Source: Escherichia coli (lineage in GTDB: Bacteria; Pseudomonadota; Gammaproteobacteria; Enterobacterales; Enterobacteriaceae). Taken from it: a stretch of 64,000 bases of DNA. This document shows, in pieces, positions 45,001 to 60,000 of this stretch (position 1 is the first letter of the stretch; each line of letters opens with the position of its first letter). A program made the position numbers. Where the stretch lies: the NCBI RefSeq assembly GCF_030013205.1, contig NZ_CP122648.1, one strand, 5' to 3'.

Positions 45001-48000
45001 TCATTAAATCTTTTCGCGAACTATTCCCGGAGGTTCGGCTCGAGCTAATCCAGGGGACGCCACAGGAAATTGCGACGTTGTTGCAAAATGGCGAAGCTGA
45101 TATTGGTATTGCCAGCGAGCGTTTGAGTAATGACCCGCAGCTCGTCGCCTTCCCGTGGTTTCGTTGGCACCATAGTTTGCTTGTTCCACTCGATCATCCC
45201 TTGACGCAAATTACACCATTGACGCTGGAATCAATAGCGAAGTGGCCGTTAATTACTTACCGACAGGGGATTACGGGGCGCTCACGTATTGATGACGCAT
45301 TTGTCCGCAAAGGTTTGCTGGCAGATATTGTATTAAGTGCGCAGGATTCTGATGTCATTAAAACCTATGTTGCTCTTGGGCTGGGGATCGGATTAGTTGC
45401 CGAACAATCCAGTGGTGAACAAGAGGAAAAGAATTTAATCCGTCTGGATACGAGGTATCTTTTCGATGCTAATACTGTCTGGTTGGGACTGAAGAGAGGG
45501 CAACTTCAACGTAACTATGTTTGGCGCTTTCTGGAACTTTGTAATGCAGGACTGTCAGTTGAGGATATCAAGCGCCAGGTGATGGAGAACAGTGAAGAGG
45601 AAATTGATTATCAGATATAGCAAAAAGCCCGCTATAAAAGCGGGCTTTTCAGAAATTTGGCTCCTCTGACTGGACTCGAACCAGTGACATACGGATTAAC
45701 AGTCCGCCGTTCTACCGACTGAACTACAGAGGAATCGCTGTTGAGGCACATCTTAACGGCGAAAAATCTTTTGTCAAACCCGATTTTTAAATTTCCCAAC
45801 TGTTTGCCGTTTCTATCAACAGTTTGTTGCATTTGCAGACAATTTGTTGGCGAAAATCTTTGCAGCTTTGCTGATTCTCCCTCATTATTTGAAATGTGGT
45901 TTCACTTTCTGCAATTAAGGTCGGCTTTGAATATCTCCTCTGCTTTACGCCAGGTTGTTCACGGCACTCGCTGGCACGCTAAACGCAAGAGCTACAAAGT
46001 GTTGTTCTGGCGCGAGATAACCCCGCTTGCTGTTCCTATCTTCATGGAGAACGCCTGTGTCCTGTTGATGGGTGTCCTGAGCACTTTTCTGGTCAGCTGG
46101 CTGGGAAAAGATGCGATGGCCGGCGTGGGATTGGCGGACAGCTTCAATATGGTCATTATGGCATTTTTTGCGGCTATCGATCTTGGTACCACTGTCGTTG
46201 TGGCATTTAGTCTCGGTAAGCGGGATCGACGACGAGCGAGGGTGGCGACGCGGCAGTCATTGGTGATCATGACGTTGTTTGCCGTGCTGTTGGCAACGCT
46301 TATTCATCATTTTGGCGAACAAATTATTGATTTCGTTGCGGGTGATGCCACGACAGAAGTTAAAGCACTGGCGTTGACTTATCTGGAGCTGACGGTACTC
46401 AGTTATCCAGCAGCTGCCATCACTTTGATTGGTAGCGGGGCACTTCGTGGTGCAGGGAATACGAAAATACCGCTACTGATTAACGGTAGCCTGAATATTC
46501 TTAATATTATTATTAGCGGCATATTGATTTACGGCCTTTTCTCCTGGCCGGGACTGGGATTTGTCGGGGCTGGGTTGGGGTTAACCATTTCTCGTTATAT
46601 TGGCGCAGTGGCAATTTTGTGGGTGCTGGCGATTGGTTTTAATCCTGCGCTAAGGATTTCGTTAAAGAGCTATTTTAAACCGCTGAATTTTAGCATTATC
46701 TGGGAAGTCATGGGGATTGGTATTCCAGCGAGTGTCGAATCAGTATTATTTACCAGTGGTCGGTTATTAACCCAAATGTTCGTTGCCGGGATGGGGACCA
46801 GTGTTATTGCCGGGAATTTTATCGCGTTTTCAATTGCGGCTCTTATCAACTTACCCGGAAGTGCGCTCGGCTCTGCTTCTACGATCATTACAGGCCGAAG
46901 GTTGGGGGTAGGGCAGATAGCGCAAGCAGAGATTCAGTTGCGGCATGTGTTCTGGCTGTCCACTCTTGGATTAACGGCCATCGCCTGGCTAACGGCTCCC
47001 TTTGCCGGGGTTATGGCATCGTTTTACACCCAGGATCCACAGGTTAAACATGTCGTTGTGATTCTGATTTGGCTAAATGCTTTATTTATGCCTATTTGGT
47101 CCGCCTCATGGGTGCTACCCGCTGGATTTAAGGGTGCTCGCGATGCCCGTTACGCCATGTGGGTTTCTATGTTGAGCATGTGGGGTTGCCGGGTTGTAGT
47201 CGGTTATGTGCTGGGAATCATGCTTGGCTGGGGTGTGGTTGGTGTCTGGATGGGAATGTTTGCCGACTGGGCTGTGCGGGCCGTGCTGTTTTACTGGCGA
47301 ATGGTTACTGGACGTTGGCTGTGGAAATATCCTCGACCCGAGCCGCAAAAGTGTGAAAAAAAGCCAGTTGTGTCGGAATAAACGACAAAATGCAGATTAT
47401 TTCAGCAAACGATTTCAAATTTAAAAAACAGGCTTTGACATTGTGGATGGGCATCGCTAATATTCGCCTCGTTCTCACGATTCCTCTGTAGTTCAGTCGG
47501 TAGAACGGCGGACTGTTAATCCGTATGTCACTGGTTCGAGTCCAGTCAGAGGAGCCAAATTCAAGTTTTCATGCTTATCTGTACGTCTCTATTTGTTTAC
47601 GATTCAGTAAGTTAGCGTGAAAATCCTTCCCGGTGCGTATCTGGTTTTCTCTCTGTATCGGGATAATTTGGTGGTCAGATCTGGGGTCAGTTTGGTTCGA
47701 TTCTGGAGTGACCCCCAAATGTCTTTAAACGATTCTAAAATCCGCAAGTTAAAACCCTCTTCCCGTCCGGTAAAACTCTCCGACTCTCACGGTCTGTATC
47801 TGCTCGTCAATCCGGGCGGTTCACGCATCTGGTATCTCAAATATCGTTTCAACGGAAAAGAATCCAGAGTCAGTCTTGGCGCATACCCGCTTGTCTCACT
47901 GGCAGAAGCCAGGCAACAGCGCGACGGTATCCGTAAGTTACTGGCGCAGAATATCAACCCGGCGCAGCAGCGCATGGCGGAGAAAGCGGCCTGCTCCCCT

Positions 48001-57000: not shown

Positions 57001-60000
57001 CAATATGACTGATACTATTCAAATGGTAAGGTAGAGCCTTGGGGAGGATTCTATGATGCAAACAATCAATTGCAAATGGACACGAATCAGCCTGGACATG
57101 AGTTTACATTCAAGCGAAGGAAACCATAGGTATGAGGTATTTTCTCTTTATATTTATAACAATCCCCCTTATCTCTGGAGGTCATATGAGTAATGATAGC
57201 GAAAAGATAATATCAACATATTCGCTCAATTTTTTATCACCAGATGATGTGAGGAAAGAAGAACTTAAGGCATCACAAGGTGATAGTGATGCTGCATTTA
57301 AATTGTACAAATATTACCTTTTTTGCGAGCCAAAATCATACAGAAAACAGCACGAATGGTTAATAATATCGGCAAATAATGGAAATGCTATAGCTCAATA
57401 TAACTTATCAAGAGAACTTGAGTCAGAAGGAAAAGTAGATGAATCAATACAATGGCTGAAAAAATCAGCGGAACATGGTAATAATTATGCACAATATCAG
57501 ATGTCAAAATATTTATTAAAAATAGGTGATATTAGAGGATCGGAATATTATCTAAACTTATCTGCGGATAACGGATGTGTATTTGCAATAAAAGATATTA
57601 TCAAAAATATGATGGATAGTGGAAGGTACGATGACGCCCTCATTTGGGTTGAAAAATTGAAAAAATTGTATCCTGACACAAATACCGAACTTTACATACA
57701 AAAAATAACGCAGAAAAAAAGCAATCCAAATAATAATTATATATAATTACTCGCACAGAGTTACAGTATTGCAAGAAATATATCTAGCATATAAAGTCGC
57801 CGCCAGTAAAGATAAAGTACTGTGTAATCCTTCCTCCCATATAGGGGTAAAAACTTAGCATCCAGTGCCCTCGACTTAATTTTTAGTATTTTCTCTGTGA
57901 AGTGACACTTCGTAGGATTCAGTTCATGTTTACCAGAAAAAAGGTGGTCATTCTGGTGGTCTTGATAATCTCGATTTTTTGTTTTAGCTTTCCAATCAGC
58001 CAATTAATGGCTACGGCGATCCCAGTCAGAGGAGCCAAATTTTAGTTTTGAGACATCTCTATGAGTCTCAAGACAGTTAAAAAATAAAAATTATTTTTAC
58101 CCGGTTACCTTGTAAAAAAGTGACCGGGTTTTTTGATTTCTGTGTTTCGTGCGCTTAATCGAGTCTCACGCTTCAGTGAGCAAATTGCCCCCCAACAGAC
58201 ATCACGATTCGCAAGGTCAAAAACTTCGTTCTGTGAAGTACCGTACAAAGGTATAGAGAAAAATACCTTATGCTGGATGTCGCTGTCGCGTTTTTATCGG
58301 GAAACTATGCGTAATTGCCACTTTGCCTTCTGTAATCAGAAAAAGAAGAACTGGAATTTTAATAAATATTATTTCTCTGGGAATGGGGATTTTTTATAAT
58401 CAATATGACGAGTTGAACATTATATTTTTATAATGATTATATGAGATTAAAGAAATCTGCCATAAAGACAGATTTCTTTAAAATATAATTAGAGATTTGC
58501 GACGTTATGATAAACTTTTTGTACATCGTCGTCATCTTCAAGGGCATCAACAAGCCCTTCAAAGATTTCTAAATCTTCTGGGGAAAGCTCAACTTCAGAT
58601 TGAGCAATCATTTCTAATTCTGTTGTTGAGAACTCAGTGATTCCAGCTGCTTTTAGAGCCGCGATTCCTTTATGAAGGTCAGTAGGTTCAGTATAAATAA
58701 CAATATTACCTTCTTCTTCAGTTACATCACGAACATCAACTTCAGCTTCAAGTAAAATTTCAAAAATATGGTCAGGGTCTGTTCCTTTAAATACAATCAC
58801 ACCCGTATTGTCAAACATATAGCTGACAGAACCTGCCGCTCCGATATTGCCGCCTTTTTTATTGAAAATTGTGCGAACGTTAGCAATCGTACGGTTAACA
58901 TTGGAAGTCAAGGTCTCAGCGATAATCATTGAGCCATTAGGACCAAAGCCTTCATAACGGCCCTGCACGAACGTTTCATCTCCGCCGCCTTTGGCTTTAT
59001 CAATTGCTTTATCAATAACATGCTTTGGAACTTGTGCCTGCTTTGCTCGTTCAATAACGAATTTTAAAGATGTGTTTAATTCTGGATCGGGTTCACCTTG
59101 TTTGGCAGCGGCATAGATTTCTACACCGAATTTTGCATAAATTTTAGACGTCGCACCGTCTTTAGCCGTTTTTTTAGCAACAATATTGGCCCATTTACGT
59201 CCCACTGGAATGATCTCCTCGAAAATTTATTTACATTACTGGTAAATCGTTAACATGTGTTAATTCGGCATATTATATCATAACAGGAAAAATCTCGTCT
59301 ATTAGAAATAAAAATATTCTAAAGTCATAATCTTATATTTAATTTCATAAAAAATTATATTGTTGGCGGGATTTTTTATAATTGTGTTTTGAAAGCATAC
59401 TTGCTTTTAATATGTGGGAATTATTAAGACGATAATAAAACTCGCATCTGTCCAAGAAAGCAAACAGCCCGCGTTTATTGCAGGCTATTTGCCAGATGTC
59501 TTACTTACTCCTTCACATCTATTTCTGATAAGAAGGTTCAGAACTTATTATCGGAACGGCGGCTCATTAAAGGTTCGTAATTTACGTGAATGCAGTCGGT
59601 CGCCTTCTGCGCGCAGCAAATCGATCGCCCGAATGCCAATTTGCAGGTGTTCGGAAATAGCGCCTTCATAAAAACGGTTAGCCTGACCGGGAAGTTTAAT
59701 CTCACCATGTAATGGTTTATCTGAAACACACAGTAGTGTCCCGTATGGCACGCGGAAACGATATCCTTGCGCGGCAATGGTTGCACTTTCCATATCAATT
59801 GCTACGGCCCGGCTTAAGTTAAAACGAAGTGCAGAAGCTGAGTAACGTAATTCCCAGTTCCTGTCATCTGTGGTTACCACAGTACCAGTACGTAGCCGCT
59901 GTTTGACTTCCTCACCGGGCCTGCCGCTGACTAACTTGGTGGCGTCATAAAGCGCACGTTGCACTTCAGCAATACTCGGAATAGGAATATCGGGCGGCAG

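Follow-up and report, generated by a model that had tools for sequence, protein, structure and literature searches.

A probable integrative island with a C4-type RNA module and Rhs cargo at the tRNA-Asn gene asnW of Escherichia coli

The stretch of DNA analysed here (the window) comprises 64,000 nucleotides of Escherichia coli (assembly GCF_030013205.1, contig NZ_CP122648.1), and its region 47400-58200 is 100% identical to E. coli K_EC180, a swine isolate from Korea. Between two copies of a 20-bp repeat, the first of them at the 3' end of a tRNA-Asn gene, lie a P4-type integrase pseudogene (int) beside the tRNA, an AT-rich spacer, the pseudogene of a second tyrosine recombinase (int2) with an EFASI RNA upstream of it, a C4-type antisense RNA leader with an open reading frame (ORF) for a conserved protein, ORF153, and a gene for a Ner-like regulator, and finally an Rhs effector gene followed by a putative immunity gene (Table 1). 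How did this DNA reach the tRNA gene? Is it still able to move? Which known elements does it resemble? The original prediction, made from the sequence by eye, had proposed a 10.5-kb genomic island integrated at the 3' end of asnW; what goes beyond its content is the C4 antisense module, the EFASI RNA, the second recombinase pseudogene and the truncation of the toxin.

ARAGORN finds three tRNA-Asn genes in the window. The one at the island comes after yeeO and is therefore asnW, and it is complete despite the insertion at its 3' end. The repeat, CCAGTCAGAGGAGCCAAATT, is exact at both ends of the island, where shuffles expect 0.00 matches, and is also present inside both other tRNA-Asn genes of the window. 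It had been described as the last 20 nt of asnW; the exact duplication stands, but only 16 nt belong to the tRNA and the remainder is AATT. The DNA between the repeats measures 10,460 bp, or 10,480 bp with one repeat copy included. An alignment across asnW-yeeN, which the original prediction had put forward as a check, gives a clean empty site: in strain CREC-2 yeeO, asnW and yeeN follow one another with a single repeat copy and a clean junction, and in a three-way alignment the left flank of attL and the right flank of attR together make up this site. Thus, 10,480 bp were inserted, and two exact copies of the attachment (att) core now stand where the empty site has one. The K-12 derivatives NEB Turbo and TG1 also have the empty site, their match to the right flank starting only at the repeat, under an annotated tRNA-Asn, which confirms for these derivatives that the island is absent from K-12. 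The displaced tRNA terminator suspected beyond the second repeat is also real: at 58099-58129 a hairpin stands before a U run, with a folding energy of -16.7 kcal/mol (z -3.66), and in genomes with an empty site it is the asnW terminator, about 60 nt past the tRNA. A simple terminator scan missed it because its loop has 11 nt. The composition, compared with the backbone as had been suggested, is atypical, GC content ranging from 33% to 64% inside the island vs 46-50% outside. Arm-type repeats common to both ends were considered and rejected, as the ends share no 9-mers; GGTGGTC occurs at both and is too short to weigh.

Table 1. Features of the island at asnW, in window coordinates
Feature	Position	Strand	Basis or remark
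asnW, tRNA-Asn(GTT), regenerated by insertion	47482-47557	+	ARAGORN; Rfam tRNA 72.6 bits; yeeO upstream
attL, 20-bp core repeat (final 16 nt of tRNA + AATT)	47542-47561	+	Exact repeat, junction alignment
int, P4-type tyrosine integrase pseudogene	47719-48980	+	1-nt deletion (C) after 48152
AT-rich stretch	48981-50343		131-nt direct repeat, imperfect palindrome, five + strand CTGCACCAGA-like motifs
Terminator-like hairpin, 12-bp stem, directly 3' of int	49013-49042	+	Hairpin scan
CTGCACCAGA-like motifs, six sites (exact or one mismatch)	49355, 49596, 49625, 49818, 50261, 50984	+	Span 49355-50993
int2, second tyrosine-recombinase gene, pseudogene here	50344-50935	-	PF12834 + PF12835 family
EFASI RNA (RF02957), full length	50991-51118	-	100.8 bits vs gathering 51.2
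CTGCACCAGA, four exact copies between Ner-like gene and EFASI	51265-51624	-	Inverted vs copies downstream of int2
Strong GC hairpin downstream of Ner-like gene	51703-51745		Perfect stem seen in spurious microRNA alignments
Ner/SfsB-like HTH_35 regulator, 62 aa, intact	51852-52040	-	SfsB model
ORF153, conserved protein (153 aa)	52037-52498	-	Model: four-helix bundle + beta hairpin
a2 and b2, downstream C4 targets	a2 52547-52541, b2 52516-52510	-	Just ahead of ORF153 start
C4/CI-type antisense RNA (RF01695, clan CL00128)	52552-52640	-	62.2 bits vs gathering 45
C4 loops b' and a'	b' 52597-52588, a' 52581-52575	-	Pairing analysis
a1 and b1 hairpins (seqA/IsrK-like)	a1 52699-52693, b1 52683-52674	-	Leader region 52662-52759
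Promoter-like TTGCTG-17-TATTGT	52759-52731	-	Leader start
Rhs core protein, 1330 aa	53020-57012	+	PAAR-like N-terminus, DUF6531, YD shell, PxxxxDPxGL motif, toxin tip
Cut-off last 39 toxin codons, in frame up to ancestral TAG	57013-57129	+	Homolog comparison
Putative immunity gene, Sel1/TPR-like, intact	57186-57746	+	Position; weak Sel1/TPR signals
Island right arm	57935-58021	+	81-90% conserved between copies at different tRNA-Asn genes
attR, second 20-bp core copy	58022-58041	+	Exact repeat, junction alignment
Original asnW intrinsic terminator, displaced 10.5 kb from tRNA	58099-58135	+	Folding; empty-site position

Of 5426 complete genomes, 205 (about 4%) have 80% or more of the island, part of the backbone matches in 1300 of the 5426 E. 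coli genomes, and the exact right junction of the window copy is common to 67. The left-junction probe matches 366, a count not to be taken for the island frequency, since the probe also picks up pks integrases with a match of about 87%. Copies with native flanks lie at asnT between mtfA and yeeJ (strain D3, locus L006), between asnU and cbl (strain AW1.7, L020) and at asnV (strain 22AR0118, L003), and strain N3 (L021) has the island at asnW as in the window. Copies at all four genes have the same architecture, each bounded by the core repeat, and that of AW1.7 encodes an intact 420-aa integrase. The occupation of several tRNA-Asn genes between native flanks, together with this intact integrase, argues that the island moved by site-specific integration. 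Could the 10.5 kb instead be ancestral in E. coli, the empty sites being secondary deletions between the 20-bp repeats? A precise deletion between direct repeats would leave the same empty-site sequence. However, the small share of complete genomes with the island and its presence at four different tRNA-Asn genes already contradict this proposal, and the strongly atypical composition, the integrase beside the tRNA and the different tRNA occupied by relatives in other genera also speak against it; we consider an ancestral origin extremely improbable.

The surroundings of the tRNA-Asn genes hold several other observations. The EFASI-to-C4 backbone probe matches the chromosome of K_EC180 (NZ_CP062203.1) at a second place too, and this strain may therefore carry another island of the same family. 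Outside the window (L027:3429-8521) its yeeJ by asnT has lost the N-terminus and is frameshifted, with about 440 bp left to the tRNA, possibly the scar of an earlier island plus a deletion. A comparable case is strain FXCREC123 (L004), where yeeJ is truncated and directly adjoins what is left of an island. Several island carriers (C25, L005; 22AR0118; AW1.7) show inversion or rearrangement of the yeeO-cbl-nac segment that lies between the tRNA-Asn genes, and inversions around pks insertions have been reported (PMC8209727).

Is the island still mobile? Apart from its lesion, int has a full 420-codon frame with catalytic motifs, and the repaired protein gives the Pfam set Arm-DNA-bind_3, Phage_int_M and Phage_integrase. 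The original prediction was thus right in placing a frameshifted P4-type integrase next to the tRNA, and the frameshift is a single missing C. The deletion is common to the window and N3, whereas other island copies carry an internal stop in the integrase in its place; the lesions differ between copies, which means that the gene lost its function independently on more than one occasion. Near asnT, asnU and asnV, K_EC180 has neither an island nor an integrase. With the other three tRNA-Asn genes unoccupied no obvious helper is present and the island is stranded, which strengthens the earlier suggestion that it is probably fixed in place. N3, a human isolate, is 99.4-99.6% identical to the window over island and flanks and has the same integrase frameshift, the same int2 deletions and the same weakened Shine-Dalgarno sequence of ORF153; these lesions are therefore older than the split or transfer that separates the two. 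Such a pair could also mean that the last transfer was homologous recombination of a larger chromosomal segment, by transduction or conjugation, with the island already immobile in the donor. The identical lesions and the high identity extending over the flanks speak for this, but vertical descent in one clone explains the same data, and the proposal covers the last step only, since the insertions at four tRNA-Asn genes still need site-specific integration. We regard it as possible, though rather improbable.

The spacer beside int has a GC content of 33-41% at 49000-50000 and holds no ORF conserved between island copies, on which ground hidden genes in this gap were rejected. It contains a diverged (73%) direct repeat of 131 nt (49182-49312 and 49410-49540) and an imperfect 41-nt palindrome (49206-49291). 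It had been called AT-rich and palindrome-rich; the first holds, the second in part, for there is one strong hairpin, the one imperfect palindrome and the diverged repeat. Iterated CTGCACCAG motifs lie near the two 131-nt repeats, and together they loosely recall the two 120-bp crr repeats and the iterons of phage P4.

On the other side of the spacer, two deletions, of 186 bp and about 87 bp, set int2 apart from its intact form of 885 bp; its Pfam assignment was made on the intact copy of 22AR0118, and AW1.7 has an intact int2 as well. The EFASI RNA lies directly upstream, ending 55 nt before the int2 start, and occupies the same position in L003, L006 and L008 (fold z -3.66 for the window copy). 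STAXI repeats upstream of EFASI gave no Rfam match even at E up to 10; such repeats often lie a few hundred bp upstream of EFASI, an array of CTGCACCAGA fills that position instead, and its identification as STAXI was rejected. This motif occurs 15 times in the window vs 3.7 expected, with 10 hits within 2.3 kb. The sets on the two sides of int2 face opposite ways, the sixth plus-strand site lying beyond int2 next to EFASI, and the arrangement is kept in E. coli and Klebsiella relatives. The Dickeya element, which has no int2, has no exact copy. Might int2, and not the P4-type integrase, then be the working mobility or rearrangement module, inverting or excising the segment between the inverted arrays? 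The enrichment and opposed orientation of the motif and the lack of exact copies in the Dickeya element would fit, as would the Hafnia relative, in which the whole C4-to-int2 block is inverted relative to int. Yet the orientation of int2 relative to the Ner-like gene and EFASI is constant in every E. coli and Klebsiella copy examined and thus gives no sign of frequent inversion, an idea that was rejected, Hafnia alone differing with its whole block turned. The island borders, moreover, are the tRNA core repeats and not CTGCACCAGA, and int2 is internally deleted in the window. A leading role for int2 seems to us decidedly unlikely.

The most interesting by-product of the analysis is a conserved P4-like RNA switch common to a family of small cargo islands. 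On the minus strand a promoter-like element is followed by a1, b1, C4, a2, b2, ORF153 and the Ner-like gene. An a1b1/isrK-like Rfam element covers 52662-52737 on that strand, and the C4 RNA folds at -51.1 kcal/mol (z -5.0). In the window a1b1 pairs with the C4 loops at 17 of 17 positions, and the loops pair with a2b2 at 14 of 14. Is this pairing more than a coincidence of one sequence? Leaders of eight elements from five genera (four from E. coli, the others from Klebsiella, Dickeya, Hafnia and Salmonella) were aligned. Between a1b1 and the C4 loops 96.3% of cells pair, with compensatory changes in 10 of 17 pairs; between the loops and a2b2 the values are 98.2% and 8 of 14. None of 500 shuffles reaches the observed score, slid controls pair at only 21-46%, and the a and b sites switch together at all three places. 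On comparative grounds the covariation strongly supports a functional antisense pairing in the family. The loops and their targets form discrete specificity types (for a: AGCCT, GGCAT, GGAAC and GGTCT), and strain D3 is a hybrid whose a2 is mismatched to its own a' loop.

Phage P4 gives the same C4, isrK and a1b1 matches at its CI/seqA region; among the relatives, the c4-a1b1 model is above gathering in L003, L006 and L010 and the isrK model in L008, L010, L006 and L003. The window copy lacks the hairpin-plus-U-run terminator that follows b1 in most relatives, and the Shine-Dalgarno sequence of its ORF153 is weakened from GGAG to GTAG, a change common only to N3. On both counts, the RNA switch of the window is an impaired copy.

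ORF153, which has no annotation, has about 200 relatives across Enterobacterales, and a confident model of it is a generic helical bundle. The start of the Ner-like gene overlaps the ORF153 stop (ATGA) and is preceded by GGAGG. Its product matches the SfsB model (E 6e-26) with 90.3 bits, under the equivalog cut-off of 150, and its homologs carry PF13693; by these matches the protein is a family relative and not an SfsB ortholog, and at this family level the Ner-like regulator of the original prediction was borne out. A relationship to P4 ORF88 was rejected, as the comparison is not significant. The strong GC hairpin downstream could possibly form the end of the C4-ORF153-Ner transcript. ORFs over the C4 region of some relatives are labelled 'ash family protein' (PF10554; L015:9865-10023 and L011/L012:9678-10109, to be compared with the C4 RNA in Table 1), and the old P4 'cI protein' coding sequence (L026:8168-8584) likewise overlaps the CI RNA. 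PF10554 may largely model translated non-coding RNA sequence, and this suggests that 'ash family protein' genes beside such modules are the translated C4 RNA region.

In other genera, homologs of ORF153 sit in the same backbone adjoining a tRNA, with the RNA motifs kept and the cargo different: AbiE, TacAT and DUF4747 in Klebsiella, a type I restriction-modification system with DarTG in Dickeya, and a NERD-helicase gene in Hafnia. Within E. coli, a relative at asnT with an intact integrase carries large unannotated genes, and a common variant carries DUF2169 and Rhs fragments. Are these elements degraded P4-like phage satellites, once dependent on a P2-like helper, that lost their replication and capsid-hijacking genes? 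The P4-type integrase, a leader with the same three Rfam matches as the P4 CI/seqA region, the equation of IsrK with P4 SeqA (PMC4825925) and the crr-like look of the spacer repeats and iterated motifs would agree with such an origin. However, PHROGs, NCBIfam and the PGAP annotation give no counterpart among the island ORFs to P4 alpha (the primase-helicase), epsilon, sid, delta or psu, the core genes and cos of a satellite are not in evidence, ORF153 compared with P4 ORF151 reaches an hhalign probability of 0.2%, and relatives with intact integrases (L013, L010, L017 and L020) are also without satellite genes. In 50,697 phage records there is next to nothing of ORF153 or int2 beyond short unannotated fragments, and a phage origin of either was rejected. 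A satellite past is in our view unlikely.

What does the window island carry? Its Rhs protein matches the RHS_core model NF041261 with 2484 bits vs a cut-off of 2000 and is about 80-85% identical in nucleotides to RhsA, B and C over the core. At the N-terminus the PAAR signal is weak (E 0.23) and DUF6531 is clear; the core has an in-frame deletion of 72 bp at about 54011-54020. The PxxxxDPxGL motif (aa 1221-1230, 56680-56709) marks the beginning of the toxin tip at 56710. The frame ends at a premature TGA (57010-57012) where AW1.7 and N3 read TGG, and close toxin homologs extend 39 residues further. Of an expected Rhs toxin/immunity pair, the Rhs gene and a downstream gene are thus present, but the toxin tip is not intact. 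The tip is found in 91 genomes, and 18 of them give an exact match to a 61-nt probe with the stop at its centre, the result expected of the TGA allele; the eight of these 18 that were listed are all swine isolates.

The toxin tip has 898 relatives among representative proteins, as C-terminal domains or as repeated internal domains of giant proteins, and some homologs lie in VgrG-PAAR or VgrG-DUF2169 clusters with small genes after them. Neither the tip nor its relatives are covered by Pfam, and the Protein Data Bank holds no sequence match, so that an identification by sequence was given up and fold comparison alone is informative. The intact 139-aa tip models at a predicted local distance difference test score of 92 and resembles the cysteine protease domains of MARTX and TcdA, the Pseudomonas aeruginosa type VI secretion system (T6SS) effector Tce1, gingipain and CHAT. 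Two residues, His32 and Cys72, are invariant. The model points to a clan-CD cysteine protease (caspase-hemoglobinase-type) fold, with His and then Cys after consecutive strands, a likeness at the level of the fold. The downstream gene begins 56 nt after the ancestral toxin stop, or 2 nt after it if the alternative start at 57132 is used, and a Sel1-like gene also follows a toxin homolog in L022. PADLOC detects no anti-phage system in the island.

Taken together, the 10.5 kb are very probably an integrative genomic island that entered the 3' end of asnW by its own P4-type integrase, with a C4-type RNA module in its backbone and Rhs cargo, and that is now decaying. Integration, as the empty-site comparison shows, regenerated the tRNA and duplicated the 20-bp core as attL and attR. 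With the tRNA terminator moved to the far side, transcripts from the asnW promoter probably read into int, as has been reported for the pks and high-pathogenicity (HPI) islands (PMC8209727). Its conserved backbone consists of int, the AT-rich spacer, EFASI with int2, and the C4-type leader with ORF153 and the translationally coupled Ner-like gene. The processed C4 RNA would pair with a2/b2 at the ribosome-binding region and silence ORF153 and Ner; covariation supports the pairing, and we infer the repressive outcome by analogy with P4 and P1. Beyond the C4 promoter is a slot for cargo, filled here by a PAAR-like Rhs effector with a tip of 139 aa and then the Sel1/TPR-like immunity gene. Decay has taken the reading frame of int, internal parts of int2, the ORF153 Shine-Dalgarno sequence, the IsrK-type terminator, 72 bp of the Rhs core and, by a nonsense codon, the end of the toxin; it has accumulated in the window copy to the point that the island is immobile. 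The Ner-like gene and the immunity gene are still intact, and the remaining benefit is likely immunity against kin with an intact toxin.

Several points weigh against parts of this picture. The c4-a1b1 model scores 43.8 bits in the window copy, below its gathering threshold of 46.7. ORF153 has no match in Pfam, PHROG, NCBIfam or PADLOC, and its fold is generic. As far as the sequence goes, C4 could repress in the manner of P4 and P1, or the short leader RNA could activate in the manner of IsrK. The immunity role of the last gene is putative, based on its position and weak Sel1/TPR signals, and the toxin, though truncated, may still be active to some degree. The island yielded no recombination directionality factor, and excision to a circular form is not expected of the window copy, its int being frameshifted.

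What does the island mean beyond this strain? In itself it is ordinary: tRNA-Asn is a classic target of P4-type integrases in E. coli (HPI, pks), and the element is automatically annotated in some 200 public genomes. An Rhs effector locus as cargo of an island found at all four tRNA-Asn genes nevertheless gives one concrete route of Rhs toxin shuffling, and in a swine-associated lineage the toxin was lost while the immunity gene was kept, a pattern expected if kin defence outweighs attack. A backbone with a covarying P4-like antisense switch that carries anti-phage cargo in Klebsiella, Dickeya and Hafnia offers a handle on how integrase-only defence islands are regulated and moved. More tentatively, and with the odds as we see them against it, these elements may form a widespread, unnamed class of small integrase-only cargo islands of Enterobacterales, in which a P4-type RNA switch drives ORF153 and the Ner-like gene, the islands act as satellite-like, helper-responsive vehicles and the co-varying RNA specificity types are mutual-exclusion or immunity groups; an EFASI-led second recombinase flanked by iterated motifs would often be part of the backbone. 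If so, such vehicles would carry anti-phage systems as well as T6SS effectors from one tRNA site to another, and this would explain the control, and perhaps the mobilisation, of the integrase-only defence islands met in E. coli pan-genome surveys.

The remainder of the window shows some further features. The interval between tmaR and pocR/cobUST holds a complete propanediol-utilisation (pdu) microcompartment operon (21798-36330), a region with two genes that PGAP reports as frameshifted (23153-24498 and 30502-32333). In the yefM-yoeB toxin-antitoxin pair the antitoxin gene is intact, but the annotation gives the YoeB toxin gene (12002-12255) a frameshift. Between plaP and sbcB sits an inserted IS200C transposase gene (15975-16433). 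At 61103-64000 the annotation splits shiA into two overlapping pieces of 1119 nt and 237 nt, vs a gene of 1317 nt in other strains, and the glycosyltransferase family 9 gene yeeL is broken by IS1 at about 63649.

How does the island compare with known systems? The closest by site are the pks and HPI islands, which have the same tRNA-Asn targets, P4-like integrases and 17-bp repeats (PMC8209727, PMC7545054). The island shares with them the target, that is the identical 3' ends of asnT, asnU, asnV and asnW, the P4-type integrase by the tRNA, the short direct repeats, which take in 16-17 bp of the tRNA end, and a tRNA promoter that points to int (PMC8209727). The 5' region of the pks integrase is about 87% identical in nucleotides to int of the window, and the E. 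coli HPI is likewise immobilised. The window island is, however, much smaller (10.5 kb vs 54 and 30-40 kb) and carries an Rhs effector, not a polyketide or siderophore pathway, and the part of pks examined has none of its C4-type module, EFASI and second recombinase.

The RNA module is most like the immunity regions of P4 (PLE-seqA-CI-seqC) and of P1/P7 (immI c4), where a processed antisense RNA has targets on both sides in one leader, the downstream target lies at the start of the first gene, and the pairing sites co-vary as discrete specificities. What differs is the regulated genes, ORF153 and a Ner-like helix-turn-helix protein vs P4 eta/kil/epsilon/alpha or P1 icd/ant, and the absence from the island of phage or satellite structural, replication and packaging genes. 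The IsrK-orf45-anrP system of Salmonella Gifsy-1 (PMC4825925) also has a leader of the isrK model and an ATGA overlap that couples the first ORF to the second, and the terminator after the first hairpins in most relatives would give short and read-through isoforms. In Salmonella, though, the short RNA activates translation and the downstream gene is a prophage antirepressor; in the window island the downstream genes are others and the IsrK-type terminator is lost.

For the cargo, the models are RhsA-F of E. coli and the PAAR-Rhs proteins of T6SS, which have the same YD-repeat core, PxxxxDPxGL demarcation, variable tip and small gene close behind. The window Rhs differs in lying inside a tRNA-integrated island with no adjacent vgrG and in its truncated tip, an unannotated protease-like domain; literature searches turned up no description of an Rhs island at a tRNA-Asn gene. 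Finally, the 'integrase-only' defence islands of E. coli, the mobilisation of which was called unclear (PMC10121019), are equally small and tRNA-linked, with one or more integrases, no other recognisable mobility genes and variable cargo. That survey has no defined shared backbone, whereas the island at asnW belongs to a family that has one, and its own cargo is an interbacterial toxin.

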